Source of the DNA: Actinomycetota bacterium | Lineage (GTDB): Bacteria; Actinomycetota; Coriobacteriia; Anaerosomatales; UBA912 | Direction: 5' to 3' | Assembly: GCA_018334075.1 (NCBI GenBank) | Contig: JAGXSC010000008.1 | Location: 3,342 to 67,341, forward strand | Length of the DNA: 64,000 nt | In this document: positions 4,039-61,588 of the stretch, one piece after another | How positions within the stretch are numbered: position 1 is the stretch's first letter | Layout of the letters: each line of letters starts with the position of its first letter | The notes under the pieces: model-generated | The model's database searches: none | Seen by the model: the letters and a program-made list of their open reading frames with translations, nothing else | Told to the model about the DNA's origin: nothing | Made by a program: the position numbers and the translations under genes

Positions 4039-4068
4039 GTTCCCATCCTTTCATTCCAGTACGGCAGC

Positions 4069-25935: not shown

Positions 25936-25983
25936 GAGCGCTCAATTTTTTCGAGCTCGGCGAATCCACCTAGGGTGATGGTC

Positions 25984-27384
25984 ATGGAGTTAGCACAGAA
26001 GCCTGAATTAAAACAGCGCATGACGCTTTCTCCTCAGGTCTACCAGGGCTTGAGCATCCTTGCTATGCCGGTTATGGAGCTTCAAAATCTCATCGAGGCT
26101 GAGGTTCTGGAAAACCCCGTTCTCGAGACCGATGAGGTCGACGCTGACCCATACGACGCTGAATCTCCACCTTCAGAATCAGCACAAACGGATCAAGAAA
26201 GGGCGTGGGAGGAGTGGCTGGACATGTACGAGGATCTCCATCCCTTCAACGCGACCACTGCGATCGATTCCGACACTGAGGCAGACAGCGTCGGGGAGTA
26301 TTCCCCGGTGACGCAGACTTTTGCGGAGTATTTGATGTCGCAGCTCGGTCTTTTGGACGTCAGCGGCGATGTTTATCGTGCGGCAGCGGCAGTGATCGGC
26401 CTACTCGATGACGACGGCTACTTCAAGGGTGAGCTTGCCGAAGTGGTAAGGATTGCCGGAGTCGATATCCCTACTGCCGAGGAGGGAATCTCGGCCGTTC
26501 AGAGCCTGGATCCTCCTGGGGTCGGAGCTCGGACGCTCGCCGAAGCCCTCAGTATTCAGCTCGCTTACCTGGGAATAGAAGACCCGTTGCTCGATCTGCT
26601 GATCCGTGATCACCTTCAAGATATCGCATCCAACCAGTTCGCCAGGATCGCGCGTTCGGCAGGGGTTCAAGAATCGGAGGTCCGTCAAGCCGTGTCTGTG
26701 CTTCGGCAATTGAATCCCAAGCCCGCAGGAGAGTTCTCGGCAGGCCCAGCACCGGGTTATCTAGTTCCGGACGTTACCGTCAGGCGGTTCGATGATGAGT
26801 GGATGGTTTTTCCCAATAGCGAATTCATTCCATCTCTGAGAGTCTCTTCCCGGTACAGAAATATGCTTCGCTCCGGGTCTCGGGTCGATGATGAGACCAA
26901 GCGCTATCTAAAGGACAAGATACGGTCGGCGGAGGCTTTTATACGTAATGTGGACAGGCGCAAGGACACAATCAGCCGCATCGCGGAAAAGGTGATTGAG
27001 GCGCAACAAGATTATTTTGAGAACGGGACAGGGCCGCTAAGGCCGCTTAGGCTTGAGGATGTAGCAGTAGAGCTCGGCGTACATCTGTCGACCGTCAGCC
27101 GCGGCGTTACGGGAAAGTACATGATGACCCCGTATGGGCTTTTCGAGATAAAGCACTTCTTTTCCGGGGGGTATCGTACACGGACAGGCATGGACGTGGC
27201 CTCTACCAGCATCAAGCATCGCATCAGGGATATCATAGCCTCGGAAGATCCAACGAAGCCGCACTCCGATCAGAAGCTCGTTGAGATTCTCAATCTTGAA
27301 GGAGTCACCGTTGCTCGCAGAACTGTGGCCAAGTATCGCGAAGAGCTAGGGATTGAGCCCTCGTGGGCTCGGAGACGCAGATGA
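25984..27384 (+). CDS. rpoN: RNA polymerase sigma-54 factor RpoN
   Basis: Gln/Leu-rich region I (LKQRMTLSPQVYQGLSILAMPVMELQNLIEAEVLENPVLE), an acidic region II, an HTH, and the RpoN box ARRTVAKYREELGI. Confidence 0.95.
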   Translation: MELAQKPELKQRMTLSPQVYQGLSILAMPVMELQNLIEAEVLENPVLETDEVDADPYDAESPPSESAQTDQERAWEEWLDMYEDLHPFNATTAIDSDTEADSVGEYSPVTQTFAEYLMSQLGLLDVSGDVYRAAAAVIGLLDDDGYFKGELAEVVRIAGVDIPTAEEGISAVQSLDPPGVGARTLAEALSIQLAYLGIEDPLLDLLIRDHLQDIASNQFARIARSAGVQESEVRQAVSVLRQLNPKPAGEFSAGPAPGYLVPDVTVRRFDDEWMVFPNSEFIPSLRVSSRYRNMLRSGSRVDDETKRYLKDKIRSAEAFIRNVDRRKDTISRIAEKVIEAQQDYFENGTGPLRPLRLEDVAVELGVHLSTVSRGVTGKYMMTPYGLFEIKHFFSGGYRTRTGMDVASTSIKHRIRDIIASEDPTKPHSDQKLVEILNLEGVTVARRTVAKYREELGIEPSWARRRR

Positions 27385-28886
27385 CACAGGAAGGTAGCTC
27401 CGCGAAGTTCTTCGCCGAAAAGGGCGATCCCGGGCGAATGATGAACCGGGCCGTGGTCATCATACTTGGACTTCTGTTTGCTGTTGCCTTGTTGGATGCA
27501 TATGCCGTCACAGCGGAAGAGGCCGGCTGGTTACATCTGCTTGTTCAGCGCCTGTACTATGTGCCGGTTCTTTATGGGGCGTTTGTCTTTGGCAAGAGGG
27601 GAGGAGTGGCTGCTGCTTTTGCTGCAGCGTTGCCTTATACCGTATTTGCCTACTATTCCCCGTTGAACTATGCGGGCCTCAAGTGGGATAACGCTCTCGA
27701 GGTCATTATGTACTTTGTTGTCGGCGTACTTTTTGGTGCACTACGCGATGCTGAAGAGGGGAAGACCCGAGAGCTTCGCAGTATGAGCGAGCGCCTCGAG
27801 GATGCATACAAGAAGCTGGAAGAACGGGCGATACAATTAATTAATGTGCAAGACTACACGCAGTCCATCTTACGCTCGATCACTTCCGGAGTGCTTACTG
27901 TTGGGCCAGATGGATCTGTCACTACGATAAATCCCGCCGCGGAGCGCATGCTTGGAGTCACGGAGCATGATGTCGTGCCACGACCGATAGGCGCAGTGTT
28001 CGCCGATGATGGCGGGCTGGCCGAGGACGTAAGTAAGGTTCTCGCCGGCAGGCTGCCACTCATACTCCACGAGCTGGAGCTGGTGGCACTCGACGGCAAC
28101 CGGATATTCGTGCAAGCAATGACTTCGAGGATGCGCGCTGTGGGTGGCAGGATCCTGGGTGCGGTGGTAACGCTGGAGGATGTTTCCGAGATCAACGCAC
28201 TGACCGAACAACTAATCAGGGCCGACAGACTGGCGGCGATGGGTCAGCTGACCGCAGGCGTAGCGCACGAGGTGCGCAATCCGCTAGGGGTAATCAGGGC
28301 CTCTGTTCAACTACTAGAGGACGGTGTCAGCGACCGCGATCGCATAGAGCAGGTGGCTGGAGTCATCAAGCACGAGATTGATCGACTGGACCGAGTTATC
28401 AAGGCTCTTCTCGACTTCGGCCGACCCAACAGGCCGACTTTTGCAAAAGTCGATATCGAGGAGGTCTTGCACGATGTCCTCTTCTTCACGACGAGGTTTG
28501 CCAAGCAGTCTGGAGTTACAATCAGCGAAGAGTTCGAAGGTAACCTACCTTCGGTTCTGGCCGATTCGGATCAACTGAAACAAGTCTTCCTGAACTTGGT
28601 GACGAACTCGGTGCAGGCCATGGAGGATACCGGCGGCACGATTGCGGTTACGACCAGGCTGGGCGGAGAGTTTGTCCACATCATGATTTCGGATTCCGGT
28701 CCCGGAATCGAGGAGCCAAATTTGGGTCGGGTTTTCGATCCGTTTTTCTCGACACGCCCCGAGGGAACAGGTCTGGGACTTACCATTGTTCACAGGATCA
28801 TAGATCAGCACAACGGCCACATAGAGGTTTCCAGCGGCAAAGGGGTTACCACTTTTCGTATACGCCTTCCGATAGCTGTGGATTAG
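27381..28886 (+). CDS. Membrane-bound PAS sensor histidine kinase (NtrB/AtoS-like)
   Basis: N-terminal TM block, a PAS region, the H-box AAMGQLTAGVAHEVRNPL, and N/G boxes (LVTNSVQAM, DSGPGI, GTGLGL). ATG 27381 overlaps the rpoN stop (ATGA). Confidence 0.9.
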   Translation: MTQEGSSAKFFAEKGDPGRMMNRAVVIILGLLFAVALLDAYAVTAEEAGWLHLLVQRLYYVPVLYGAFVFGKRGGVAAAFAAALPYTVFAYYSPLNYAGLKWDNALEVIMYFVVGVLFGALRDAEEGKTRELRSMSERLEDAYKKLEERAIQLINVQDYTQSILRSITSGVLTVGPDGSVTTINPAAERMLGVTEHDVVPRPIGAVFADDGGLAEDVSKVLAGRLPLILHELELVALDGNRIFVQAMTSRMRAVGGRILGAVVTLEDVSEINALTEQLIRADRLAAMGQLTAGVAHEVRNPLGVIRASVQLLEDGVSDRDRIEQVAGVIKHEIDRLDRVIKALLDFGRPNRPTFAKVDIEEVLHDVLFFTTRFAKQSGVTISEEFEGNLPSVLADSDQLKQVFLNLVTNSVQAMEDTGGTIAVTTRLGGEFVHIMISDSGPGIEEPNLGRVFDPFFSTRPEGTGLGLTIVHRIIDQHNGHIEVSSGKGVTTFRIRLPIAVD

Positions 28887-28901
28887 GGATGTGGAGGACA
28901 G

Positions 28902-30254
28902 ATGAAACGTAGCGTGCTTATCGCTGATGACGAAAAAAACATGCGCTGGGTGCTGAGCCAGGCCCTTCAGGCAGAAGGTTTTGAGGTCATTGAGGCCACT
29001 GACGGGAAGGAGGCGCTATCGGTGGTGGCCGAGCGCTTACCCGATGTCATGATCCTGGATTACAAGATGCCCGTTCCTGACGGCATGGAGGTTTTGAGCA
29101 GGCTAAGAGCGAAAAATCATACATTTCCGATCATCATGCTTACCGCACACGGCAACGTGACTCAGGCGGCCGAGGCTATAAAAAAGGGGGCAACCGAGTA
29201 TCTGACCAAGCCATTTGACTTGGAAGAACTGAAGTTGGCGATTGAGAAGGCACTGAAGATGAGCGAGCTGACCGCCGAGGTCGAGCGCTTACGTGAGGAG
29301 CTCTATCGCGAATACAACGTCCATGGAATTGTGGCTGCAGATCCAAAGATGATGGACGTTCTTGACCAGGTTAAAAGGGTGGCGCCAACCGATGCCACGG
29401 TGATGGTTTATGGCGAGTCAGGGACAGGGAAAGAGCTGGTTGCCAGAGCGCTTCATGCGATGTCCGAGCGCATACACGGCCCCTTCATCTCTGTAAGCGC
29501 TGGAGCCTTGCCGGAAACATTGCTCGAAAGCGAGCTGTTCGGGTATGAGAAAGGCGCGTTTACGGGAGCCGTGACCGCCAAGCCAGGGCGATTTGAGCTC
29601 GCAAACGGCGGCACTTTGTTTCTCGACGAGATAGGCGATATCTCGCCTGGCGTTCAGGTCAGACTGCTGCGCGTTCTTCAGGAGCGTCAATTCGAGCGTC
29701 TGGGTGGAACCCGCACCATAGAGGTGGATGTGCGTGTAATCGCCGCTACAAATCGCGATCTGCAGCAGCTTATCGCCGAGGGCGTGTTCCGGGAGGATCT
29801 GTTCTACAGGCTCTCGGTAGTTCCGGTCACGCTTCCCGCACTGCGACACCGCTCAGGAGATATTCCGCTCCTTATTGCACATTTTCTCGCAAAGTTCAAA
29901 GCTGGTGACAGAAGGATTTCACCAGAGGCGATGCAGGCTATGGTCGATTATCAATGGCCTGGAAACATTCGTGAGCTGGAAAATACCATCGAGCGAATCC
30001 TGATACTCTCACGCGAAGAAGATATCGCACTCTCTGACTTGCCTGCCGAGGTACGCGCAGGCGCAGTTTCCGCTACCTATGCGCGATCGCAGATCGCGCT
30101 ACCTGAAAGAGGATGCGACCTGGAAGAGGTTGAGCTTGATCTGATTCGGCAGGCTATCGACAGGTCGGGAGGCAATCTTCCTAAGGCCGCAAAGTTGCTT
30201 GGCTTGACAAAGAAGACGCTGGAGGCGCGGATGACTCGACTTGGTATCGAGTAG
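28902..30254 (+). CDS. Sigma-54-dependent response regulator (NtrC-type bacterial enhancer-binding protein)
   Basis: REC domain ([10 protein letters not shown]), AAA+ Walker A GESGTGKE, the sigma-54 contact loop GAFTGA, and a C-terminal Fis-type HTH ([17 protein letters not shown]). Confidence 0.95.
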
Positions 30255-30274
30255 ACGTCTTCCCGAATCCCCAT

Positions 30275-30290
30275 TGGCACAGCGTTTGCA
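30275..30290 (+). promoter_or_regulatory. Sigma-54 (-24/-12) promoter TGGCAC-agcgt-TTGCA
   Basis: Exact match to the TGGCAC-N5-TTGCW consensus, 20 nt after the bEBP stop codon, oriented toward the downstream HMA/ccdA genes. Confidence 0.8.
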
Positions 30291-30342
30291 ATTTTGTCCA
30301 TGGATAGCTTGTTGGTTTCGCGCGGGTAAGGGTGGTGCATTC

Positions 30343-30576
30343 GTGTTCACTGCGTTTATGGCAGCACTCAGAAATAGAGGGCGCTCTGGCGGCAATGGCA
30401 GCCGACAGGTAAAGTGCTTGTCGTGTGATCATGACATCTTGGTCGGGTGGAGGCTGTGCCCCTACTGCGGCGCGCTGCTGGAGAGCGATATTCGACCCGC
30501 GATGTTTGCAAAGTCAGATACGAGCGATACAACCAAGGGAGTAGGCGATGGGGAACATCGAGAGCCTTCGCTTTAG
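30343..30576 (+). CDS. Possible small Zn-ribbon protein
   Basis: First ORF downstream of the sigma-54 promoter. It has a CLSC...CPYCG motif and a GTG 30343 start after AAGGGTGGTG (alternative ATG 30358). It overlaps the HMA gene by 29 nt, and its coding status is uncertain. Confidence 0.35.
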   Translation: MFTAFMAALRNRGRSGGNGSRQVKCLSCDHDILVGWRLCPYCGALLESDIRPAMFAKSDTSDTTKGVGDGEHREPSL

Positions 30577-30772
30577 GACACAAGGCATGCACTGTCCGTC
30601 TTGTTCGCTGCTGGTTGACATGATGGTCGGAGAGTTGGACGGCGTGCAAAGTGTCAGCTCCGATCACGTAACGGGCGAAATTTCCATAGAGGTCGACACC
30701 GATCGAAGTAACAGGGATGCCGTTGTCTCTGCTATCAGAAAAGCCGGTTATGAGCCGGAGCTGATTGCGTGA
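30548..30772 (+). CDS. Heavy-metal-associated (HMA) domain protein, CopZ-like
   Basis: GMHCPSC metal-binding motif in a 74-aa ferredoxin-like-fold-sized protein. AAGGGAG SD. Confidence 0.8.
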   Translation: MGNIESLRFRTQGMHCPSCSLLVDMMVGELDGVQSVSSDHVTGEISIEVDTDRSNRDAVVSAIRKAGYEPELIA

Positions 30773-31494
30773 GCGCAGTGGTAGGGGTAGCCGGGGCGTT
30801 CTTCGCCGGCGTACTCTCTTTTCTTTCCCCATGCGTGCTCCCGCTGGTCCCCGGGTACCTTTCCTTTATCACCGGCTACTCTTACGATCAACTGCAGAGC
30901 AGCAGCAGTAGATGGAGCAAAGTTCTTGCGCCCAGCCTGCTTTTCGTCGCGGGATTTACCATTGTTTTTGTCAGCCTTGGGGCTACAGCCTCCACGTTGG
31001 GCTCGATGCTCCTTGCGTATCGCGAGGTACTGCAGGTGATTGCAGGCGGCATGATTTTCTTGCTTGGACTATTCTTATCCGGGATTTTCAAGCTTCCATC
31101 GCTTTACGGTGAGGCGCGCTTCGACCTTGGAAAAACCAGGGTGCTTGGCCCTTTATCGGCCATGATCACCGGGATGGCATTCGCCTTTGGCTGGACTCCA
31201 TGTGTGGGGCCGGTTCTCGGCTCCATTCTTGCACTGGCGGGCTTCGGGGGAAGTCTGACGCAAGGGGCTACGCTATTGTTTGCGTACTCTCTTGGCCTTG
31301 GGTTGCCCTTCATTCTGGTCGCCTTGTTGTTCGGGCGCGTTAGCGGGTCCTTGAGGCTCTTCGCGAAATACGCAGCCCCGATAAACAAGGTTTCAGGTCT
31401 TCTACTCATGGCCGTAGGGGCTCTCATCGCGTTTGATCAGCTGTCCGCCCTTAGTGCCTGGTTTACATCTGTGTTGCGCCTTCCCTCGCTGTGA
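30769..31494 (+). CDS. ccdA: Cytochrome c biogenesis / thiol-disulfide transfer protein CcdA (DsbD-family core)
   Basis: Conserved Cys motifs LSPCVLPLVPGY and GWTPCVGPVLG in a 6-TM protein. GTG start overlaps the HMA stop (GTGA). Confidence 0.85.
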   Translation: MSAVVGVAGAFFAGVLSFLSPCVLPLVPGYLSFITGYSYDQLQSSSSRWSKVLAPSLLFVAGFTIVFVSLGATASTLGSMLLAYREVLQVIAGGMIFLLGLFLSGIFKLPSLYGEARFDLGKTRVLGPLSAMITGMAFAFGWTPCVGPVLGSILALAGFGGSLTQGATLLFAYSLGLGLPFILVALLFGRVSGSLRLFAKYAAPINKVSGLLLMAVGALIAFDQLSALSAWFTSVLRLPSL

Positions 31495-31594: not shown

Positions 31595-34500
31595 GTGGCT
31601 CGCAGCACCAAACGCGGAGAGTCGTTAGCGTTTAACCTGGCATTGATTATGTTTATGGTCGTCACGATCTCACTGACCATCGTGATGGTAGTGTCTATCG
31701 CTGGTGTAGTAGACCTTGCCGTTAGGCATGCAAGTGCTCGTCAGATGGCTTATCAGCAAGCGCTGGTAACGGAGATGACTGCCAGACTGACTGGCACATT
31801 GGGGGTCATGTCGAGGGCGACTGCGGTTCTTGAGCGCCCGGAAGGAACGGAGCCCAATCGAGTCGCACTGGCGATGCAGCTCGATGCGGGCGCCGAATTC
31901 GTGGATTCGATGATAGTGGCATTGCCGGATGGCCTGGTTGTTGCCGCGTATCCGACGTTTCAGGCCCCTCGCGACGTTTTTGGTACTCCAAAGTTCGAGG
32001 CCGCTCACTCTGACGAGCCAGAGTTTGTTTATGTACCGGAGGCAGGGGAGCTTTGGGTTTCTCGGCGCATCGAGACTCCTAATGGAGACAATATCTTGAT
32101 GCTCAGGGTACGGACCGCGTTTCTTGAGCTTCTGGTCGAAGACTTTTCTTCAGTGGCGGAAAGACGTGTCGCCATGATAACTGACGCAAAGGGAACTGCG
32201 GATATTGTCAGCCCGAGACGCCCAAAGATCGAGTTTCAATCCTGGAGATTCGAGCCCGAGGGCGATCTTGACGCTGGCTACGTACATGCGCGCTCGTTCG
32301 ATGAAACCGACTTTGTCGGACGTTACTCCACTCTAACCGGGTATCAGGGTATCGTTTGGAGGATTTCGGTCGTTGAGCCCCGAATGGCGATATTTGAGGA
32401 AACTGGCCGCGCTCTGGCGCCAGCCGCTCTGGCCCTGGCTTTTGGCGGACTTCTTTCGATAATCGTGTCATTTGTGTTTGTTCGTCGCCAGGTCAGGCCG
32501 ATAAAAGATCTCGAATCACGAGCCCGGGCAGCGATAACCGGCGCACATGTCCAGCCGATCGAGTCCGATCGCGCTGATGAGCTTGGGAGGATGGCCGATG
32601 CCTTCGACGCCATTGCGCTACGCCTGAATCTACTCAACCACCTGTGTCAACTGCTCGCGTCATCTTCAAATCTCAACCAGGTTCTGGATGGAATACTAGT
32701 TGCGCTCAGGCAGTTATTGGGCAGTGAATCGGTCGCGGTTCTGATCCTTGACAAGAGTGAAAGCAAGGTCGTAGGCGTACGAAGTGCGGGTCTGAGCATC
32801 TCTGATGATACCGTTGTAGACATATCCAGGGTGAAGTGGCTGTCCGCGGCAGTTCAGGCTGAAGGGCCAATTTCAATCACTGGCACGGATTATTCCAATG
32901 AAGACGCGCCTTTTGCTGCTTCCTCCATAGAGAACCTGTTGTTCTCAACGGGTATGGTTGTTCCCTTGAGGGTAGGAGAGAGCCTTTTGGGTGTGGTTGC
33001 AATCTTTGAGTCGGGCAAGCGAGAGTTCACGGCCGCTGAAGTCGAGATACTCAGAACCTTCTCGGCGCAGGCATCTATCGCTGTTTTCAACTCGAGGTTG
33101 TTTGAGACAGAAAGTGTGATGCGGCAGGAGGCGGAGGCTCTTCGGGAGATAGCAGGTATACTTGCGCTTCCTCAGGCGCTCGGCGATTCAATCAATGCGT
33201 TCGACGATGCAATTGGGAGGCTGTTTGGTGCGGATGGCGTCCTGACAGTCCTGATCGGTTCTGAAAAACTGGGCTTTACGCAGGGCGCCAAGTCCGAAGT
33301 CGGGGATTTGTTGCTCAAGGTCTGGGCGACCCACCAAGGCACACCAGAGGGAGTCAGCCTGATAACGATCGAGCGTGGCCAGGATGTTGATATCGATCGA
33401 TTGCTGGAGTTACTCGACAGCGAGCAGGCATGGTTGCTGAGTGCGATGCGGCCCGACATGGCTGGAGTGATTGTTGCGCTGAAATTTGGCGCGGATGCCC
33501 CGCCCCCTTCCTTAGATGAGCGTATCCACTCCCGGGCTCAGGCGGTGTCAAGTCAGTTGAGCCTGGTTCTGGAGAATACGTACAACCTTGCTGCCGCAAA
33601 ATCCCACGCCTCAAACCTCGAGACCATATTTCGAATCTCCCAGGCCGTTAGCTCTTCTCTGCAGATCAATGTGGTTCTCAATCGCGTTCTTGATGTCGTC
33701 CAGAAGATATTCACTGCTGACGCCATGACGCTAATGAAGTACGACGAGGCGAAGCAAAAGATATCTACCGTCATGGCAAGAGGGAAAATATCAAATAAGC
33801 TGCTTCACTTTGAGTGCGCTCCCGGCGAAGGGATTTTTGGTGAGATATTCAACGCTGGCGAGCCGCTGAGAGTCGGATATTTGTCCGATTATGACAATAG
33901 CGCAGGACTCGAAGATATGGCAGAAGGACTCAACTCGCTCCTTTCCGTTCCGCTGATTACCAGGGGCAGAAGTATCGGTCTTCTTGCAATCTTTTCGGTC
34001 AACTCCGATGCTTTCAGCGATGAAGACATGGACTTGCTCCATACATTTGCCTCGCAGGCAGCCTTAGCGATCGATACTGCAAGTCTCTACAGCAGGGAGC
34101 ACCACGTCGCCTCGGTGCTTCAATCTGGTATTTTGCCCCAAAGCCTGCCGGATTATCCGGAAATAGTGTCAGCCAGCATCTATCTTCCATCAGGAAAGGA
34201 CGCCGAGATCGGCGGTGACTACTATGACCTGTTCAGGGATCCACAGGGCAGGATTGCCTTTGTAATCGGGGATGTTTGCGGCAAGGGAATCGAGGCTGCC
34301 ACCAAGACATCGATGATCAAGTACTCCGTCAGGGCACTCATAGCTGCCGGGCTTCGCCCTCATGAGGTGCTAAGGGAGACCAATCGTTTGATCTCCGAGA
34401 CGGGCACCGCCAGCGATATCGTTACCTTGTGGGTGGGAGTGCTTGAGCCGGATACTGGGCTGCTCCACTATGCGAATGGGGGGCATCCCCCTGCATTACT

Positions 34501-34861
34501 GTGGAGACCAGGTTCGCGAAAGAGCGAGCGCTTATGCACAACTGGCCCTCTACTGGGTGCGTTTGCCGATGTTGATTACGAAGAGATGCACTCTCAGCTT
34601 CTCGCCGGAGATATGATTTTGCTCTATACGGATGGCGTGACTGAGGCGCGAAGTGGGAATAAATTCTTTGGAGAAGGTCGTATACGAAGGGCTCTTTCCA
34701 AAGGATTGACACCGGTAGATGTTGCCGATGAACTTTTGTCTGCACTGGACGACTTTGTTCCCGGCGACCTTCGCGACGATGCTGCTGTTCTTGTGATTCA
34801 GCTTGCAGATCGGATAGTTGACCAAATGGGCACTACAGATGGAAACGCAAAGGGCGTGTAG
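31595..34861 (+). CDS. Membrane sensor protein: extracytoplasmic domain-HAMP-GAF x3 (middle one degenerate)-PP2C (SpoIIE/RsbU-type) serine phosphatase
   Basis: Two TM helices flank a ~240-aa loop. HAMP (RPIKDLE...ELGRMADAFDAIA). GAF-like blocks end in ...VPLRVGESLLGVVAIF and ...VPLITRGRSIGLLAIFS. PP2C motifs are GGDYYD, GDVCGKG, LYTDGVTEA and DDAAVLV. Confidence 0.85.
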   Translation: MARSTKRGESLAFNLALIMFMVVTISLTIVMVVSIAGVVDLAVRHASARQMAYQQALVTEMTARLTGTLGVMSRATAVLERPEGTEPNRVALAMQLDAGAEFVDSMIVALPDGLVVAAYPTFQAPRDVFGTPKFEAAHSDEPEFVYVPEAGELWVSRRIETPNGDNILMLRVRTAFLELLVEDFSSVAERRVAMITDAKGTADIVSPRRPKIEFQSWRFEPEGDLDAGYVHARSFDETDFVGRYSTLTGYQGIVWRISVVEPRMAIFEETGRALAPAALALAFGGLLSIIVSFVFVRRQVRPIKDLESRARAAITGAHVQPIESDRADELGRMADAFDAIALRLNLLNHLCQLLASSSNLNQVLDGILVALRQLLGSESVAVLILDKSESKVVGVRSAGLSISDDTVVDISRVKWLSAAVQAEGPISITGTDYSNEDAPFAASSIENLLFSTGMVVPLRVGESLLGVVAIFESGKREFTAAEVEILRTFSAQASIAVFNSRLFETESVMRQEAEALREIAGILALPQALGDSINAFDDAIGRLFGADGVLTVLIGSEKLGFTQGAKSEVGDLLLKVWATHQGTPEGVSLITIERGQDVDIDRLLELLDSEQAWLLSAMRPDMAGVIVALKFGADAPPPSLDERIHSRAQAVSSQLSLVLENTYNLAAAKSHASNLETIFRISQAVSSSLQINVVLNRVLDVVQKIFTADAMTLMKYDEAKQKISTVMARGKISNKLLHFECAPGEGIFGEIFNAGEPLRVGYLSDYDNSAGLEDMAEGLNSLLSVPLITRGRSIGLLAIFSVNSDAFSDEDMDLLHTFASQAALAIDTASLYSREHHVASVLQSGILPQSLPDYPEIVSASIYLPSGKDAEIGGDYYDLFRDPQGRIAFVIGDVCGKGIEAATKTSMIKYSVRALIAAGLRPHEVLRETNRLISETGTASDIVTLWVGVLEPDTGLLHYANGGHPPALLWRPGSRKSERLCTTGPLLGAFADVDYEEMHSQLLAGDMILLYTDGVTEARSGNKFFGEGRIRRALSKGLTPVDVADELLSALDDFVPGDLRDDAAVLVIQLADRIVDQMGTTDGNAKGV

Positions 34862-34867
34862 GGAGTC

Positions 34868-35698
34868 ATGGCGCATCGGATAGCCAGGCGTCCTGATATC
34901 GGGGTTGTAACGTGCGCAATCTCTGGAGATATCGACCTAGCTACAGTTCCGGAGTTGCAAAAATCCCTGGGTTCGATCATTGAAGCCGGCTACACCAGCA
35001 TCATTCTTGACCTCGCAGAGGTAGATTATATTGATTCTACAGCTTTTAGCCTTCTGGTTTGGCTGGATCGGCAGCTGGTCGACGCGCAGGGTAGCGTTAT
35101 TCTTGCAGGTGCCAACGAAAAGGTTCAAAGAATTCTCGATATGACCCAGATCGTGACGTACATGTCTGCCCTGAACACAAGCGAAAACGCTGAAACTGCC
35201 CTTATGGCTTTAGATCGAGGTGAAATAGAGTCAGATTTGCTCTGGGAACATCGATTTGAAGTGGAGTCCTCGATCGATAACCTTGCCAATATGCGCCAGC
35301 AGTCGGATGAAATACTGTCCTCACTCGAATTTACCGACGCCGAGAAGTTCGATATCCGAATCTCGTTAGGTGAAGCCTTGGCTAATGCCGTCAGACATGG
35401 ATCGGGCGAGGATGGCGAGATGATCACTGTGGCGATAAGGGCCTTTGAGGACCGGGTTGCGATCGACGTGATCGATTCAGGAACAGGCTTCAGTGGCGAT
35501 CATTGCGCTAGCGATGACCTCTATGCTCCGAGCGGCAGGGGTATAATGTTTATGAATGCATTGATGGATTCGGTCAGCTTCGCCCCAGGCAGTGATGGCG
35601 GTACAGTTGTCACTATGGAAAAGAGGCGAGGTGGCTTTCCGGCCACCGCGGTAGAAAAAACGGATAAGATTTTGGGTAGAAATAGTTACGATGGGTAA
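34868..35698 (+). CDS. Fused STAS (anti-sigma antagonist-like) and RsbW/SpoIIAB-type serine kinase (HATPase) protein
   Basis: N-terminal STAS with LDLAEVDYIDSTAFSLL (Ser at the phospho-site position). C-terminal N-box EALANAVRHG, G1 DSGTGF and G2 GRGIMFM. Confidence 0.8.
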   Translation: MAHRIARRPDIGVVTCAISGDIDLATVPELQKSLGSIIEAGYTSIILDLAEVDYIDSTAFSLLVWLDRQLVDAQGSVILAGANEKVQRILDMTQIVTYMSALNTSENAETALMALDRGEIESDLLWEHRFEVESSIDNLANMRQQSDEILSSLEFTDAEKFDIRISLGEALANAVRHGSGEDGEMITVAIRAFEDRVAIDVIDSGTGFSGDHCASDDLYAPSGRGIMFMNALMDSVSFAPGSDGGTVVTMEKRRGGFPATAVEKTDKILGRNSYDG

Positions 35699-35741: not shown

Positions 35742-36311
35742 ATGCTACTTCTGGAGGCACTGGAGAGAAGGCACTCGATTCGGGCGTATCGCTCTGATGC
35801 GGTTCCCGGCGAGCTGATCGACAAGATTATATATGCGGCGTCTCTCGCGCCATCTTCATTCAATGAGCAGCCATGGCGCTACTATATCGTCACGGGAGAG
35901 AGCCGGCAGCGGCTCGGCGAGATAATGGTGCAAGGAACTCACTTTCTTGAGGAATATATTCAGATGCTTGGGCATGAGATGAATGAGTATGTACTGCGGT
36001 GGTACAGTGAGTTGGGCCACGCTCCTGCAGTAATCGTTTGTACGCTTCAAAATACCGATGACGAACTCATGAAGGACAATGGGTATCTTGCGATTGGTTC
36101 TTCTATCCAAAACATGCTATTGACCGCAACGGAGTTGGGGCTGGGCTCTTGCTATATGACCTTTTCATATTGGGTCAGAGATGAGCTTGCCAGGATGCTT
36201 GGAGTACCGGAAGACCGAACCATAGTCGGGCTTATCGCGCTGGGTTATCCGGCGGAGGAGCCGTTGGCGCCGGAGCGAAAGATCAACTCTATCGTGGAAT
36301 ACCGAGACTGA
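35742..36311 (+). CDS. Nitroreductase family protein
   Basis: RRHSIRAY, APSSFNEQPWR, and a size of 189 aa. Confidence 0.8.
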   Translation: MLLLEALERRHSIRAYRSDAVPGELIDKIIYAASLAPSSFNEQPWRYYIVTGESRQRLGEIMVQGTHFLEEYIQMLGHEMNEYVLRWYSELGHAPAVIVCTLQNTDDELMKDNGYLAIGSSIQNMLLTATELGLGSCYMTFSYWVRDELARMLGVPEDRTIVGLIALGYPAEEPLAPERKINSIVEYRD

Positions 36312-36317
36312 TCGGCC

Positions 36318-37040
36318 TTGGCCCAGGCGATCTTTTTTGATATTGGCAACACGCTCCTAAGGCCCCATCCTGGGGTCTCGGAGGTGTGTAGGCAGGTTCT
36401 GAGCAGGATGGGCCACTCAGAAGACCTGTCAAAGATCGATGCCCTTATGCCTTTGGTCGACGACCACTATGAGCAACGGTATCGCGAGGACGATACATTT
36501 TGGACCTGTGAAGAGCGAGCTAGTGAAGTTTGGGTGGGTATGTATTCCCTGCTCGCCAGAGAGCTTGAGCTCGACTGCGATCACGCTCACTACGGCAGGC
36601 TTGTATACGATGAGTTTGGGTATGCCGGACGGTGGAGTCCTTACGAAGATGTGTTGCCTTTGCTGAAGAGACTGCACGACAATGGCTTGAGGCTTGCGGT
36701 AATTTCAAATTGGGACTCGCGGTTGACTTCGCTGCTCGACGACTTGGGACTCGCGCACTACTTCGAGCTCGTGATCTCCTCTGCTGATGTGGGGCTTCAC
36801 AAGCCTGACCCAAGAATCTTCAAGCTTGCCTGTGATCGCCTGGGTGTCGCCCCATCAGAGGTCGTTCACGTCGGAGACCATTATTATGCCGATATGTTGG
36901 GAGCTTCCTCGGCTGGAATACGGCCAGTGCTGATCGATCGCGGCGGAACCTACAGACTTGGAAGCAACAACAAGATATGCTCACTTGATTCGCTTGAGAG
37001 TCACCTGGGACTGACGCAGTCTTCCAAAGTGGTCACCTGA
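36318..37040 (+). CDS. HAD superfamily hydrolase
   Basis: Motif I FFDIGNTL, motif II ISNW, and motifs III/IV K...GD (HKPDPRIF, VGDHYYADMLGA). Confidence 0.8.
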   Translation: MAQAIFFDIGNTLLRPHPGVSEVCRQVLSRMGHSEDLSKIDALMPLVDDHYEQRYREDDTFWTCEERASEVWVGMYSLLARELELDCDHAHYGRLVYDEFGYAGRWSPYEDVLPLLKRLHDNGLRLAVISNWDSRLTSLLDDLGLAHYFELVISSADVGLHKPDPRIFKLACDRLGVAPSEVVHVGDHYYADMLGASSAGIRPVLIDRGGTYRLGSNNKICSLDSLESHLGLTQSSKVVT

Positions 37041-37059
37041 GAGAACAGGAGTGTTACAG

Positions 37060-38550
37060 ATGGCGATGAAGGACCTTCGTGAATTCATTGATATTCTCGA
37101 TCGACAGGGTCAACTCGTGCGCATTACCGAGGAGGTGGATCCTTACCTTGAGATAGGCGAAATCGCGGACCGAGTGAGCAAGGGATTCGGGCCCGGACTC
37201 CTCTTTGAAAACCCGATCAATCGCAAGACGGGCGAGCGCTACTCAATGCCCGTCGCCATCAACCTGATGGGAACATACGAGCGCATGGCCTGGGCGATGG
37301 GAGTTGATGCCCACACTGGCACCTGGAAGGATCTCGACGCAAAAGCCGCCGAGCTTATGGAGATGCTCCCACTCGACATGCCTGGCAGCATGAAGGGAAA
37401 GCTTGACTTGCTTGTTGGCCTTAAAGACATTGCTACGGCCGGACCCAGGGAGGTCAAGTCCGGTAAAGCACCTGTTCAGCAGGTGGTTTTGAGGGGCGAC
37501 GATGTTGACTTGACGAAGCTGCCGGTACTTACCACCTGGCCGAAAGACGGCGGCCCGTTTATTACCCTGCCACTGGTAGTCACGAACAACCTAAAGAATC
37601 GTCCCAACCTCGGTATGTATAGACTGCAGGTTTTTGACAAAAATACGACAGGACTCCACATTCACGAGCATCACGATGGCGCCAAGAACCTTCGGGCATG
37701 GGCCAAAGCTGGCTCAAAACGGGTACCCGTAGCCGCCGCTCTCGGATCTGATCCGATCACGATATTTTCTGCAACTGCTCCTGTTCCGCCGATGATAGAT
37801 GAGTACCTTTTTTCGGGAATTTTGCGCAAAGAGCCAGTTGAAGTCGTAAAGTGCGTTACCAATGATCTTATGGTGCCAGCGCATGCCGAAATTGTGCTTG
37901 AGGGATGGTGCGACCCGGATGAGGTTCGGTGGGAGGGTCCATTCGGCGACCACACCGGCTACTACTCGCTACCGGATAATTTCCCGGTTTTTCACGTAGA
38001 GGCGATCACCATGCGGCGCGACGCCATCTATCCTACGACGATTGTCGGCAAGCCTCCAATGGAGGATTGCTATATGGCCAAAGCCACCGAAAGGATATTT
38101 TTGCCGGTGATCAGGGCCATGTTGCCCGAAGTAATCGATTACGATTTGCCGCTCGAAGGCGTGTTTCATAACTGCGCCATATTCCGAATCAAGAAGGAGT
38201 TTCCCGGTCAGGCTTTTCGAGTTATGAACTTTGCGTGGTCTATGGGCCAGATGATGCTGACAAAATACGTTATCGTTGTCGACGAAGATGTTGACTGCCA
38301 CAACTACAGTGAGGTTGCCTGGCGATGCTTTAACAACGTGGATCCCAGTCGCGACATCCTGATCAGCAAAGGTCCGCTCGACAAGCTGGATCATGCGAGT
38401 AACTTCGAGAGCTTTGGATACAAGATGGGGATCGACGCGACCAAGCCCTTGCCGGGAGAAGGATATGATCGAGAGTGGCCAGAATCCCTGGAGATGGATG
38501 CGGAGGTCAAGGCCCGGATAGATGCGATGTGGGATGAGCTAGGCTTGTGA
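37060..38550 (+). CDS. ubiD: UbiD family decarboxylase (menaquinone/ubiquinone biosynthesis type)
   Basis: DLREFIDILDRQGQL.RI, FENP, GMYRLQV and GDHTGYY signatures. ATG 37060 after AGGAG. Confidence 0.9.
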   Translation: MAMKDLREFIDILDRQGQLVRITEEVDPYLEIGEIADRVSKGFGPGLLFENPINRKTGERYSMPVAINLMGTYERMAWAMGVDAHTGTWKDLDAKAAELMEMLPLDMPGSMKGKLDLLVGLKDIATAGPREVKSGKAPVQQVVLRGDDVDLTKLPVLTTWPKDGGPFITLPLVVTNNLKNRPNLGMYRLQVFDKNTTGLHIHEHHDGAKNLRAWAKAGSKRVPVAAALGSDPITIFSATAPVPPMIDEYLFSGILRKEPVEVVKCVTNDLMVPAHAEIVLEGWCDPDEVRWEGPFGDHTGYYSLPDNFPVFHVEAITMRRDAIYPTTIVGKPPMEDCYMAKATERIFLPVIRAMLPEVIDYDLPLEGVFHNCAIFRIKKEFPGQAFRVMNFAWSMGQMMLTKYVIVVDEDVDCHNYSEVAWRCFNNVDPSRDILISKGPLDKLDHASNFESFGYKMGIDATKPLPGEGYDREWPESLEMDAEVKARIDAMWDELGL

Positions 38551-39416
38551 CCTCATCGGCGTATAAGCTCCGCGGGCTTTTACAGATAGTCAAGTTCGAG
38601 CACTCGGTTTTTGCGCTGCCATATGCCTATGTAGGTGCCCTTTACGGAGTCGCCTCAGGGCTACCCCGGTTGGTGGATATCGTTTGGATTACGGTTGTGA
38701 TGATCTCGGCGCGTGCTTTTGCATTTCTGATCAACCGCATCGCGGACAAGGAGATAGACGCCAGAAATCCAAGGACCGCATCCCGTGCGATTCCCGCCGG
38801 AGTGATCAAGGTCAAAGAGGCACTGTTTTTTGCTGTGGCCATATTGGTGTTGTATCTTGTTGGGGTTTGGCAGCTCGATCCCGTCGCTCGATATCTATGG
38901 CCGATACCGCTCGTTGCGTTCATCGTATACCCCTACACCAAGCGCTTTACCCCGTTTTGCCACTACTGGCTGGGGATGTGTCTGGGGCTAGCCCCGGTCG
39001 GCGGCTGGGTAGCTGTAGGCGGCTCTATCCTGGATCCAGCGCCGTGGATTCTCGGCGTGGCAGTTATGCTTTGGACTGCAGGATTTGACATCATATACGC
39101 GACGCAGGATGTGGAGTGCGACGTTCGGGACAAGATCCACTCAATGCCTGCGGACTATGGAGTTTCTGCGGCATTGCTGCAAACCCGCATAGTTCATGCG
39201 CTAACGGTCGCGCTGCTGATCTTTGCCGGGTATCTGCTTCAAGCTGGTATCGCATGGTTTGTGGCTGTGGCACTGGCGGCGGTGCTGTTATTCTATGAGA
39301 ACAGCATTGTTTCGCCCAAAGATCTATCGCGCGTAAATGCCGCTTTCTTCCTTGTAAACGGCTGTATAGCGATAATCATCGGCAGTGGCGCTTTTATCGA
39401 CAGAGTTTTCGGATAG
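38547..39416 (+). CDS. ubiA: UbiA family aromatic prenyltransferase
   Basis: NRIADKEIDARNPRT (first Asp-rich motif) and YATQDVECD (second motif) in a 9-TM protein. GTG overlaps the ubiD stop. Confidence 0.85.
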   Translation: MTSSAYKLRGLLQIVKFEHSVFALPYAYVGALYGVASGLPRLVDIVWITVVMISARAFAFLINRIADKEIDARNPRTASRAIPAGVIKVKEALFFAVAILVLYLVGVWQLDPVARYLWPIPLVAFIVYPYTKRFTPFCHYWLGMCLGLAPVGGWVAVGGSILDPAPWILGVAVMLWTAGFDIIYATQDVECDVRDKIHSMPADYGVSAALLQTRIVHALTVALLIFAGYLLQAGIAWFVAVALAAVLLFYENSIVSPKDLSRVNAAFFLVNGCIAIIIGSGAFIDRVFG

Positions 39417-39423
39417 GAGAGCT

Positions 39424-40023
39424 ATGGCTCGTTACACGGTCATCATAACGGGTGCTTCGGGAAGCGTTTATGGGCTCCGTTTGATCGAGCAGCTGCTTGT
39501 GCGCGAGCATGAGGTGGTGATCTCGTATACGAAGACCGGGCGCGATGTATGTTCTTTCGAAACCGGGTTTGATCTTGGTAGTGAGGATATAACCAAGGCT
39601 CTTCTGCGATTCTTCGAGATTACCTCAGAGAATGCCAAGCTGCGCGTCGTTGAGCCTGACCGCATGTTCGACTCGATCGCTAGCGGATCACATCGGGTTG
39701 ACGCCACGGTAGTTGCTCCGGCAAGTATGGGATTTGTTGCACGGGTTGCAGGGGGGCTAGCCAACGATCTTCCCTCCAGAGCCGCGGATGTTGCGCTCAA
39801 GGAGCGTTGGCGCCTGGTGCTGGTGCCTCGGGAGACGCCCCTTTCCTTGGTTCACCTGCGCAATTTGACTGCATGCGCCGAGGCTGGTGCGGTCGTGCTT
39901 CCGGCTATGCCGGCATTTTATCAACAACCGCAAACGCTCGATGACTCAGTGAACTTTGTTGTAGGTAAGGTTCTGGACACACTGGGGGTTGAGCATCAGC
40001 TGTTTCCCCGATGGGGGACGTGA
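39424..40023 (+). CDS. ubiX: Flavin prenyltransferase UbiX
   Basis: VIITGASGSVYGLRLIE, VAPASMGF, RERWRLVLVPRETPLS. Confidence 0.9.
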   Translation: MARYTVIITGASGSVYGLRLIEQLLVREHEVVISYTKTGRDVCSFETGFDLGSEDITKALLRFFEITSENAKLRVVEPDRMFDSIASGSHRVDATVVAPASMGFVARVAGGLANDLPSRAADVALKERWRLVLVPRETPLSLVHLRNLTACAEAGAVVLPAMPAFYQQPQTLDDSVNFVVGKVLDTLGVEHQLFPRWGT

Positions 40024-41695: not shown

Positions 41696-41781
41696 ACAGT
41701 ACTACGATAGATCTATCTTTCAATCGGTCCCAAGCCCTTGCTTGCCTGTCGCATCTGCTTGACCGACTCGTGTAGGATGAG

Positions 41782-41857
41782 TGGAGCGGACGACGGGATT
41801 CGAACCCGCGACCCCAACCTTGGCAAGGTTGTGCTCTACCAACTGAGCCACGTCCGC
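41782..41857 (-). tRNA. tRNA-Gly (anticodon GCC), CCA encoded
   Basis: Reverse complement GCGGACGTGGCTCAGTTGGTAGAGCACAACCTTGCCAAGGTTGGGGTCGCGGGTTCGAATCCCGTCGTCCGCTCCA. Anticodon stem CAACC/GGTTG, loop TTGCCAA. Confidence 0.92.
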
Positions 41858-41993
41858 GCGAAGGGTAGTGTAGCAAGGGGTCTTGACCTGCGCAAGATGC
41901 TAGGTGTCTATGAGAATCTTCTTTCTCGGCTTTGCTTTTTTTCAGAGATTGGTACAATACCGTTCGTTGCAACTATTATGGCGATCACAAAAC

Positions 41994-42068
41994 GGGCGCT
42001 TAGCTCAGGGGGAGAGCGCTTCCTTGACACGGAAGAGGTCAGAGGTTCAAATCCTCTAGCGCCCACCA
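41994..42068 (+). tRNA. tRNA-Val (anticodon GAC), CCA encoded
   Basis: GGGCGCTTAGCTCAGGGGGAGAGCGCTTCCTTGACACGGAAGAGGTCAGAGGTTCAAATCCTCTAGCGCCCACCA. Anticodon stem CTTCC/GGAAG, loop TTGACAC. Confidence 0.92.
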
Positions 42069-42109
42069 TCAGTACTTCATGTCAGTATGACTTATTTGAA
42101 TGGACCGGC

Positions 42110-42673
42110 ATGTTCAAGGCGCTGACTTTGAGCCAAGGAAAGCGGGCTGGAAGAACATCACGTGTCCGTAGATTTCTCGGGCACGTGGTCTTATATCTGC
42201 TTATCTGGTTGGTAATCACCGGCGGCGATCTCTCTTCGCTCTTCTTCGGCGTGCCGTTTTCGATTATGGCTGCAGTTGTCTCAACTTCAATGTCGCGCCA
42301 GGACGCTTTACGGTTGAGCCCTTTGGGTATCGCGAGGTTCTTACTGTATTTCATGAAAAACTCACTTGTTGGAGGGGTAGACGTCGCGCTGCGGGCGATA
42401 AGGCCGTCAATGCCCCTCAATCCGGGATTTATAAACTTTGAATTCCGACTGCCATGTGATTTTTCGCGCGCCCTGCTATGCGACACCGTTAGCCTGTTGC
42501 CAGGCACATTGAGCGCGGGGTTCGTTCGTGACTCTGTGTATCTTCACGTTCTTGACGTGTCGCAGCCCGTGGAGAAGGAGACGCGCAAGATCGAGCAACT
42601 TATCGCCAATGCGCTCTGTATTGACCTCCCGGAAGCACCGGGCGATCATTTGACGGTTAGTGAAGATAGATGA
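42110..42673 (+). CDS. mrpE: Mrp/Mnh-type complex subunit E (MbhA-like)
   Basis: Two TM helices, then the ...VSLLPGTLSAG... motif (LTPGT-like) typical of MnhE. The longer ORF-track N-terminus runs through tRNA genes and was trimmed. Confidence 0.75.
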   Translation: MFKALTLSQGKRAGRTSRVRRFLGHVVLYLLIWLVITGGDLSSLFFGVPFSIMAAVVSTSMSRQDALRLSPLGIARFLLYFMKNSLVGGVDVALRAIRPSMPLNPGFINFEFRLPCDFSRALLCDTVSLLPGTLSAGFVRDSVYLHVLDVSQPVEKETRKIEQLIANALCIDLPEAPGDHLTVSEDR

Positions 42674-42963
42674 TTCCAGATGTGATATTCATGGGTTTTG
42701 CAACAGCAGTGCTGCTTACTATGTTGCTTGGATTTCTGCGAATCGAAATGGGTCCCACCCCTACCGATCGCATGCTTGCAGCCCAACTCTTCGGCACATC
42801 CGGAGTAGCCGTACTTCTCCTTCTCGCCGAGGCTCATTCACTGCCTGCCCTCCGGGATGCCGCTCTCGTTTTGGCTCTGCTGGCCGCTATCACAGGAATT
42901 GCGTTTGTGAAGCGTGCTTATCAGATTGATAGCAAAACCGCCGAGGAGGTTCAGGCCAAATGA
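42670..42963 (+). CDS. mrpF: Mrp/Mnh-type complex subunit F
   Basis: 97-aa, 3-TM protein with GPTPTDRMLAAQL, as in MrpF/PhaF. ATGA overlap with mrpE. Confidence 0.8.
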   Translation: MIPDVIFMGFATAVLLTMLLGFLRIEMGPTPTDRMLAAQLFGTSGVAVLLLLAEAHSLPALRDAALVLALLAAITGIAFVKRAYQIDSKTAEEVQAK

Positions 42964-43262
42964 ATTTCTTCGGCTACCTGACGATCGGTTTACTTGTTGT
43001 CGGTACTCTATTTTTTATAGCTGGCACCGTCGGACTACTTCGATTTCCAGACGTATATTCGCGTCTGCATGCTTTGACCAAGGCCGATAATCTCGGACTC
43101 GGGCTTGTGGCAATCGCGCTCGCAATCAACTCTAGCTCTGCGATTGTGTCGATCAGGCTGCTGATCACCTGGCTTCTTGTGCTCCTGGCCACCGCGACGA
43201 CGAGTCACCTGATCGCACGCGCGGCACGCGAAAACAATATTGAGCCCTGGAGACGACCGTGA
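42960..43262 (+). CDS. mrpG: Mrp/Mnh-type complex subunit G
   Basis: GTVGLLRFPDVYSRLHALTKADNLG is the MnhG signature. ATGA overlap with mrpF. Confidence 0.85.
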   Translation: MNFFGYLTIGLLVVGTLFFIAGTVGLLRFPDVYSRLHALTKADNLGLGLVAIALAINSSSAIVSIRLLITWLLVLLATATTSHLIARAARENNIEPWRRP

Positions 43263-43564
43263 GCACTTGGGAGTTTGCATTCGATGCATGGCTCGTAGTG
43301 GTGCTTATCTGGCTGGCTATTCGCACTCTGAGTGAAGCCAGGCTATTCAAGTCGGTAGTGCTGTTCATAGCGCTAGGCCTATTTGTGGCATTCGCCTGGG
43401 TCAGGCTGGATGCGCCTGATGTGGCCTTAACTGAAGCTGCGCTCGGGGCCGGAATAACCGGTGCACTGCTTCTCGACACCGTTGGTCACCTTCGTGGCCG
43501 AAAGGTTCCTTACTCCTCCGCCGAGAGAGATTCTCAAGGGAAGGCGAGTGCGAGCGATGTCTGA
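43259..43564 (+). CDS. MbhD/DUF4040 protein (equivalent to the MrpA C-terminal segment)
   Basis: RLDAPDVALTEAALGAGITG is the DUF4040 signature. GTGA overlap with mrpG. Confidence 0.8.
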   Translation: MSTWEFAFDAWLVVVLIWLAIRTLSEARLFKSVVLFIALGLFVAFAWVRLDAPDVALTEAALGAGITGALLLDTVGHLRGRKVPYSSAERDSQGKASASDV

Positions 43565-44282: not shown

Positions 44283-44580
44283 TCTTTTTTCACTTGCAGG
44301 GGCGGCGATATTCGTCATCGGGCTCTATGGCCTTCTTGTCCGTCCCCACTTTCTGCACAAGGTACTTGCACTCAACATCATGGCCGTGGCGATTTTTCTT
44401 CTTCTCGGCGCGATTGCCAGGCGCGTACCCGATCAGGCGCCCGATGCACTCCCTCATGCAATGGTGCTCACAGGAATCGTGGTTTCTGTTGCTGCGACTG
44501 CCTACTCGCTCGCTCTGATAAAGCGCATCTTTACCGATACGGGAGCTGTCTCATTCGAAGATGAGGTCTCCGATGAGTGA
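44266..44580 (+). CDS. mrpC: MrpC / NuoK-like subunit
   Basis: ~100-aa, 3-TM protein (IFVIGLYGLLVR...LALNIM...) resembling NuoK/MnhC. GGAGGAG SD before ATG 44266. Confidence 0.8.
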   Translation: MPSQTDLFSLAGAAIFVIGLYGLLVRPHFLHKVLALNIMAVAIFLLLGAIARRVPDQAPDALPHAMVLTGIVVSVAATAYSLALIKRIFTDTGAVSFEDEVSDE

Positions 44581-51672: not shown

Positions 51673-51741
51673 TCATATTGCTTGAGCAGCATCGTTTCGG
51701 CCTATAGTTTAAGGCCTTGTAGTTTGGAAGGGGCGTTCGTC

Positions 51742-61550: not shown

Positions 61551-61588
61551 GCAAGGTTGCCAAATGACACGAATGGCACACACTCGAC

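Follow-up and report, generated by a model that had tools for sequence, protein, structure and literature searches.

A fused STAS-kinase protein and its sensor phosphatase behind a putative sigma-54 promoter in Actinomycetota

Partner switches are a main route in Gram-positive bacteria from signals to sigma-factor activity. The DNA analyzed here, a stretch of 64,000 nucleotides from an Actinomycetota bacterium (referred to as the window), encodes at positions 31595-35698 two adjacent genes with the domains of such a switch: a large membrane phosphatase and a protein in which a STAS domain is joined to an RsbW-type kinase domain. An earlier description made from the letters of the DNA (the sequence-only reading) had called the pair an orphan module, with rpoN as the only sigma factor gene nearby. 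The architecture of the two proteins, their occurrence in other genomes, the promoter from which they may be transcribed, and the possible targets of the switch were analyzed.

The phosphatase and the STAS-kinase fusion

The two genes and their domains are as follows.

31595-34861, + strand: sensor phosphatase, 1088 amino acids, GTG start, with the order TM-dCache-TM-HAMP-3xGAF-PP2C
amino acids ~12-42: first transmembrane helix (TM1) of the phosphatase
~31727-32404: dCache-like domain of the phosphatase
amino acids ~272-296: second transmembrane helix (TM2) of the phosphatase
32477-32626, + strand (amino acids 295-344): HAMP domain of the phosphatase (Pfam, 24.2 bits, just under the 25-bit cut-off)
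~32666-33085, + strand: GAF1 of the phosphatase (Pfam)
~33167-33634, + strand (amino acids ~521-695): GAF2 of the phosphatase, a divergent middle block (ortholog profile)
33665-34075, + strand: GAF3 of the phosphatase (Pfam)
34241-34801, + strand (amino acids 883-1069): SpoIIE/RsbU-type PP2C domain of the phosphatase (Pfam SpoIIE, E 2.7e-51)
34868-35698, + strand: STAS-RsbW-kinase fusion, 276 amino acids, ATG start
34901-35185, + strand (amino acids 12-106): STAS domain of the fusion (Pfam, E 3.3e-16)
35036-35038, + strand: codon of Ser57, the serine of DYIDSTAF
between the two domains: linker of ~8 residues, containing Trp126
35264-35623, + strand (amino acids 133-252): HATPase_c_2 domain of the fusion (Pfam, E 2.2e-21)

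The SpoIIE profile matched the phosphatase over positions 1-190 of 192, which corresponds to a full-length PPM catalytic domain (Pfam). The motifs that had been quoted for this domain (GGDYYD, GDVCGKG, and LYTDGVTEA) are all present in the translation and, together with DDAAV, make up the PPM metal-binding Asp motifs. Profiles also supported the remainder of the architecture that had been proposed, in which an external loop and a HAMP domain precede three GAF-like blocks. Pfam matched two GAF domains in the window copy, and HAMP, which was marginal in this copy, was also seen in 14 of the 36 phosphatase orthologs. The middle block had no Pfam match in the window copy; it was scored as GAF in 29 of 37 orthologs (best E 4.6e-9), and the profile of these orthologs matched solved GAF domains. 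A single-sequence AlphaFold2 (AF2) model of the middle block was too poor for use (predicted local distance difference test, pLDDT, 39.4), and searches with the ortholog profile were used instead. The external loop of ~240 amino acids is a dCache_1-like sensor: PF02743 was matched in 11 of 36 orthologs (best E 6e-7), and the loop profile matched PDB 3lif and KinD (4jgo).

The fusion open reading frame (ORF) begins 6 nt downstream of the phosphatase stop codon, with a GGGAG Shine-Dalgarno sequence just ahead of its ATG. Besides the Pfam matches to its two halves, the fusion was matched by the NCBIfam model ant_ant_sig (TIGR00377) at 63.7 bits, above the cut-off of 53.45, and by the NCBIfam models SpoIIAB and RsbW below their equivalog cut-offs. 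An AF2 model built on an alignment of 47 sequences had a mean pLDDT of 83.5 and a predicted template-modeling score (pTM) of 0.55. When the halves of this model were compared with known structures by Foldseek, the kinase half resembled SpoIIAB, RsbW, and UsfX (target TM-score 0.75-0.92; 1th8_A, 1til_E, 6m36/6m37, and 8ih8), and the STAS half resembled SpoIIAA and RsbV (target TM-score 0.83-0.89). For the model as a whole, the best Foldseek E-value was that of PDB 9qih, the Leptospira protein LvrC, which is annotated as a response regulator. Both domains were aligned in this match; the TM-score was only 0.37 and the root-mean-square deviation ~19 A, and the relative placement of the domains differs or is unreliable.

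Among 85 orthologs with 40-96% identity, residues D56, S57, E169, N173, R176, D203, G205, and G223-R224-G225 were 100% conserved. These include the conserved serine that had been pointed out in DYIDSTAF (Ser57), and together with the Pfam matches they bear out the description of the gene as a STAS-to-RsbW-kinase fusion with N, G1, and G2 boxes. By its Bergerat-fold motifs and its fold, the kinase half is predicted to be a GHKL serine kinase of the RsbW/SpoIIAB type, and the N-terminal half is predicted to be an RsbV/SpoIIAA-type STAS domain with a conserved phosphorylatable Ser. The STAS domain was not a free-standing single-domain protein in any of the 85 orthologs; in all 85 it was covalently joined to the kinase within one ORF.

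It is exceedingly improbable that a frameshift or other sequencing or assembly error has merged two separate genes into the fusion gene or that the gene is an inactive remnant, and nothing was found in favor of either explanation. Both were ruled out by the conservation of the fusion: the same single ORF occurs in more than 100 protein clusters and, in independent assemblies, in the genomes of at least 80 species; the catalytic and acceptor residues are invariant; and the linker had a constant length, with Trp126 invariant among the aligned orthologs.

Distribution of the fusion family

The same order of domains was found in at least 80 Coriobacteriia species, usually with a GAF-PP2C gene immediately upstream. 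About 100 protein clusters (258-276 amino acids, 40-96% identity) carry the STAS-kinase architecture. When each GTDB species was represented by one genome, a scan found 159 relatives, of which 80 were retained; all 80 belonged to Coriobacteriia or Actinomycetota, and nearly all were metagenome-assembled genomes, one of them named 'Coriobacteriaceae bacterium EMTCatB1'. An exhaustive search through 1.84 billion cluster representatives with a profile hidden Markov model returned 103 matches at E <= 1e-30. The top 150 cluster representatives included 93 two-domain proteins in the STAS-to-kinase order and 12 in the reverse order, the remainder being single-domain or larger multidomain proteins. 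The fused proteins grouped as two large clusters and many singletons. One of the large clusters united the family of the window with a subfamily in Atopobiaceae, Thermophilibacter, and Parolsenella, which databases already label 'anti-sigma factor antagonist'. In other words, the STAS-kinase fusion is no rarity. It is a large family that spans Coriobacteriia and other lineages. No described two-domain STAS-to-RsbW fusion was found in the open-access literature, where absence is not proof; the family is widespread but unstudied, and no experimental study of the tethered design was found.

In 73 loci the phosphatase and fusion genes were neighbors; the gap between them had a median of 23 nt, and in some loci the genes overlapped. 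Beyond the clade of the window, only this GAF-PP2C and fusion pair formed the conserved core. It stood after an Opp transporter in Atopobiaceae, and in one representative of the second large cluster a 3xGAF-PP2C gene preceded the fusion by 9 nt. Of the 38 fused genes with enough upstream sequence in a diverse metagenomic set, 23 had a PP2C gene immediately upstream. The alignment of the second cluster was used for this metagenome scan, that of very diverse fusions being too divergent. In two loci (L063, 9160-10720, and L084, 9157-10765) the adjacent PP2C gene has been lost and the fusion comes straight after the DsbD_TM gene described below, with Ser57 and all kinase motifs kept.

The sigma-54 cassette, its promoter, and the gene neighborhood

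The genes around the pair are as follows.

25975-27384, + strand: rpoN (sigma-54), 469 amino acids (Pfam Sigma54_AID, CBD, and DBD; TIGR02395, 394 bits against a cut-off of 277)
27363-28886, + strand: PAS-HisKA-HATPase_c sensor histidine kinase, AtoS/ZraS-like, overlapping the rpoN stop by 22 nt
28902-30254, + strand: bacterial enhancer-binding protein (bEBP), REC-AAA+-HTH_8, NtrC/AtoC-like (Sigma54_activat, E 9e-71; GESGTGKE and GAFTGA present)
30275-30289, + strand: putative sigma-54 (-24/-12) promoter, TGGCACAGCGTTTGC, 21 nt after the bEBP stop and before the Zn-ribbon gene
30358-30576, + strand: small Zn-ribbon protein, start uncertain (ORF 30241-30576; Zn_ribbon_3, E 4.8e-5, below cut-off; the gene is syntenic in relatives)
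30548-30772, + strand: HMA/CopZ-like metallochaperone with CxxC (HMA, E 5e-11; matches to CopZ-type NCBIfam models below cut-off)
30769-31494, + strand: DsbD_TM/CcdA-like membrane thiol-disulfide transfer protein
35742-40023, + strand: nitroreductase, HAD hydrolase, and futalosine-type menaquinone genes (UbiD-type decarboxylase, MqnP-like UbiA, and UbiX), downstream of the fusion

Gene order in the clade of the window was near-invariant over ~80 species: EamA, rpoN, PAS histidine kinase, bEBP, Zn-ribbon, HMA, DsbD_TM, PP2C, fusion, nitroreductase, HAD, UbiD, UbiA, and UbiX. In 69 loci the DsbD_TM gene immediately preceded the PP2C gene, at a median distance of 79 nt; the gap is 100 nt in the window. 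The genes from nitroreductase to UbiX were syntenic with the pair, and no evidence was found for their membership in the module.

An exact TGGCAC-N5-TTGC sequence occurred twice in the window, where 0.17 matches were expected by chance, and the element at 30275-30289 is one of the two. In the first six related loci this element was found at the same relative position in five, and the sixth reads TGGCAT. The form TGGCA[CT]N5TTGC was present at the same position in 62 of the 64 species loci that carried both the bEBP and the DsbD genes. There were only 71 matches to it on both strands of 1.43 Mb of related DNA, all of them on the plus strand and nearly all at this site, and the intergenic DNA flanking the element was unconserved. 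Insertions left the element in front of the same genes: a TrkH block was inserted after the bEBP gene in L003 and the promoter remained with the Zn-ribbon/HMA cluster, and copper genes (cupredoxin, HMA, and P-type ATPase) were inserted behind the promoter in L002, where it still heads the cluster. This suggests that the run of Zn-ribbon, CopZ-like, DsbD-like, PP2C, and fusion genes is headed by a conserved sigma-54 promoter. Because the -24/-12 element separates the bEBP gene from the cluster to which the phosphatase and fusion genes belong, it is more likely that these two genes are a target of the sigma-54 cassette than that they regulate it.

From the arrangement of the genes we infer that the transcript probably runs through the 100-nt gap between the DsbD_TM and PP2C genes. 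A scan for terminators gave 3 hits in 69 DsbD-to-PP2C gaps and none in 73 PP2C-to-fusion gaps; in the control region downstream of UbiX it gave just 4 in 60, and the scan is insensitive in this lineage. A scan for sigma-70 promoters gave nothing useful.

The speculation in the sequence-only reading that the module modulates the sigma-54 pathway found no direct support. It would have the fusion act on sigma-54, on the bEBP, or on the kinase of the bEBP, which is unlikely. The fusion was syntenic with the rpoN, histidine kinase, and bEBP genes in ~60 species, which is what such feedback would lead one to expect; however, this adjacency is not specific, because the entire region was syntenic, the menaquinone genes included. 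In other lineages the pair was kept without a sigma-54 context: the pairs in Atopobiaceae and in the second cluster had no rpoN, bEBP, or sigma-54 motif nearby. Two Planctomycetota fusions with 54% mutual identity directly follow a gene for a bEBP-like protein without a receiver domain (L089, 3933-5823, and L091, 2-1155), and these also favor feedback, but the bEBP-like protein has a degenerate Walker A motif (GEPGTEKD) and no GAFTGA, and may not work with sigma-54. The open-access literature yielded no partner switch with sigma-54 or a bEBP as its target, and we know of no RsbW-type protein that binds sigma-54. It is just as improbable that in these sigma-54-bearing Coriobacteriia the fusion, instead of being an anti-sigma-70 factor, serves as the post-translational part of a sigma-54 circuit that is complete in itself. 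The fusion would then be produced from the sigma-54 promoter and feed back on sigma-54, the bEBP, or the kinase, or else act on a target in the regulon that is not a sigma factor. If this were true, it would be the first case of a partner switch connected to the sigma-54 machinery.

Several other features of the region were recorded. A copper block (cupredoxin, HMA, P-type ATPase, and a second DsbD-cupredoxin protein) was present between the promoter and the DsbD_TM gene in L002, L022, L026, L041, L068, and L080 (~400-5900 in each), and these insertions of copper genes point to a copper/thiol theme for the regulon of the promoter. The second exact TGGCAC-N5-TTGC sequence of the window, TGGCACACATCTTGC, is found at 51654-51668 (+ strand), within the 3'-terminal part of an RNase D-like gene (50470-51672); a Zn_peptidase_2 gene (51682-52407) starts 14 nt further on. 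This element may mark a second sigma-54 target with a near-leaderless transcript. The menaquinone genes (37051-40023, + strand), whose UbiD-type decarboxylase passed TIGR03701 (menaquinone biosynthesis decarboxylase), were syntenic in nearly all relatives. Further downstream are a Mrp/Mnh-type multisubunit cation/proton antiporter cluster and Nuo-type complex I subunit genes (41738-49080 and 60502-63708), which are unrelated.

Possible output of the switch

Genes for sigma-70-family factors were searched for in two ways. Pfam was run on the 60 main window ORFs of at least 150 amino acids, with four large ORFs left out, and phmmer was run with RpoD, SigB, SigF, and RpoE against all six-frame ORFs of at least 60 amino acids. 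The phmmer queries recovered the classical rsbV-rsbW-sigB loci L159 and L160, which served as positive controls. Neither search found a sigma-70-family gene in the 64-kb window, and phmmer found none within 10 kb in 84 related loci. An operon of the rsbV-rsbW-sigB type, with the sigma gene in the same operon, was thus seen neither in the window nor in the 84 loci with their 10-kb flanks. The statement that no sigma-70-family gene is nearby, with rpoN present, was therefore correct for the window and extends to its relatives. What does not hold is the implication that an orphan module is out of the ordinary. Only 2 of 36 diverse fused genes had a sigma gene directly downstream, and because of this the lack of a nearby sigma gene is the normal state for the STAS-kinase architecture. 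In the two exceptions, the distant metagenomic loci L131 (3837-5439) and L154 (431-2018), the fusion is followed by a SigB-like gene with Sigma70_r2, r3, and r4, a few nt away or overlapping. Because these fusions precede group-3 sigma genes, the fused architecture can occupy a sigB-type operon.

The interpretation favored here, with a probability of roughly 0.55, is that the fusion is an RsbV-RsbW phospho-switch set by the ligand-sensing phosphatase, that the two genes are probably transcribed from the sigma-54 promoter, and that the output is probably a sigma factor encoded elsewhere. By homology with characterized switches, the kinase domain would transfer phosphate from ATP to Ser57 of the STAS domain to which it is tethered, in cis or between the subunits of a dimer. 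Binding of a ligand by the dCache domain, the cytoplasmic GAF domains, or both would lead the membrane PP2C to strip the phosphate from Ser57. The unphosphorylated STAS domain would then dock on the kinase domain, again in cis or across a dimer, and displace the partner of the kinase domain, which would most probably be a sigma-70-family factor of group 3 whose gene lies elsewhere in the genome. Because a short linker of fixed length joins antagonist and kinase 1:1, the output would depend solely on the balance of kinase and phosphatase. The positions of the genes suggest that the PAS histidine kinase and the bEBP switch on the Zn-ribbon, CopZ-like, and DsbD-like genes, and that read-through probably also raises transcription of the phosphatase and the fusion. 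Since the pair is probably co-induced with the CopZ-like and DsbD-like genes, a metal/thiol envelope response is suggested, of which the phospho-switch would be an induced second tier and not a controller of sigma-54.

Several observations weigh against this interpretation. The lack of sigma-70-family genes around the 84 related loci and their rarity directly downstream of the diverse fusions do not speak for a sigma factor as the output. The fusion was kept without an adjacent PP2C gene in two species. The 100-nt gap in front of the PP2C gene could hold a promoter of its own, and co-transcription from the sigma-54 promoter is deduced from gene order. The Atopobiaceae and second-cluster pairs have neither rpoN nor a bEBP gene nearby, and no sigma-54 motif was found upstream of the PP2C genes in the Atopobiaceae, second-cluster, or Planctomycetota loci.

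The absence of an adjacent sigma-70 gene, both in the 84 loci and in 34 of the 36 diverse fusions, would also be expected if the output were not a sigma factor at all, and the STAS or kinase domain of a self-contained phospho-switch bound an enzyme, a transporter, or a regulator. There are precedents for such an output in SypA of Vibrio and in the HenR/STAS-glycosyltransferase module of Anabaena (PMC13555669, PMC3610818, PMC8256260). In many relatives an MGDG-synthase-type (monogalactosyldiacylglycerol synthase) glycosyltransferase gene directly follows the fusion, which is also in keeping with this explanation, but the gene is missing from the window and from many other relatives, and the glycosyltransferase was judged unlikely to be a dedicated general partner. 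The kinase domain is structurally nearest to true anti-sigma factors, and some fusions are found in sigB-type operons. A non-sigma output is quite possible but less likely than a sigma factor encoded elsewhere, which is the preferred target.

Comparison with the two Bacillus subtilis switches, RsbU/RsbV/RsbW-sigmaB and SpoIIE/SpoIIAA/SpoIIAB-sigmaF, shows a shared set of parts: a PP2C phosphatase, a STAS domain with the phosphorylatable Ser of DS(S/T), and a Ser kinase of the GHKL class in which the N, G1, and G2 boxes are present. Unlike in B. subtilis, the antagonist and kinase described here form one polypeptide, STAS first and kinase second, joined by the ~8-residue linker. The operon includes no sigma gene, and the input of the phosphatase is dCache-HAMP-3xGAF. 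The Chlamydia partner switch is not known to be accompanied by a SigB-type sigma gene, and the periplasmic domain of its RsbU is Cache-like. This RsbU-RsbV1/V2-RsbW system, in which RsbU is the sensor phosphatase, is the closest analog among partner switches driven by such an enzyme (PMC11619594, 10.1101/2022.05.13.491914). Its antagonists and kinase are separate proteins and GAF domains are absent, whereas here antagonist and kinase are fused and GAF domains are present.

The syp locus of Vibrio fischeri is transcribed from sigma-54 promoters under the bEBP SypG. SypE/SypA, a module of RsbW-like kinase, PP2C, and STAS domains with a non-sigma output, is the closest analog of a switch encoded inside a sigma-54 locus (PMC3610818, PMC10120452). 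SypE has its kinase and PP2C domains fused around a receiver domain, with the STAS protein SypA separate, whereas here the STAS domain is fused to the kinase. HsbR of Pseudomonas aeruginosa has the domain order REC-PP2C-kinase. Partner-switch components are also fused in HsbR/HsbA (PMC6482189), and in sigma-SsdA of Actinoplanes a sigma domain and an antagonist domain are fused (PMC10733313); unlike the fusion in the window, neither joins an antagonist to its own kinase. Rv1364c of Mycobacterium tuberculosis, which the sequence-only reading had rightly named as a fusion with a different domain order, is an actinobacterial covalent fusion that autophosphorylates and dephosphorylates its own STAS domain at Ser600 (PMC10950880). 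It combines four domains in one chain, in the order PAS-PP2C-kinase-STAS. The system in the window is not of this all-in-one type: there are two genes, the membrane phosphatase is separate, and the STAS domain precedes the kinase.

To our knowledge, all well-studied partner switches use a freely diffusing antagonist. Tethering of the antagonist to its own kinase throughout a large, conserved family points to another design, with a fixed 1:1 stoichiometry, a high local concentration of antagonist, and little room for cross-talk. Members of the family are found in named human- and animal-associated genera and groups (Thermophilibacter, Parolsenella, and Atopobiaceae) and may be experimentally accessible. 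The Actinobacteria have been reported to be without a sigma-54 system (Francke et al. 2011, PMC3162934); contrary to that report, the locus at 25975-30289 contains a complete one in Actinomycetota (Coriobacteriia), made up of rpoN, the PAS histidine kinase, the GAFTGA-bearing bEBP, and a putative target promoter that is clearly defined and conserved. The circuit as proposed is compact, consisting of a kinase, a bEBP, and one promoter followed by the metal/thiol genes and the phospho-switch, and it could be rebuilt in vitro.

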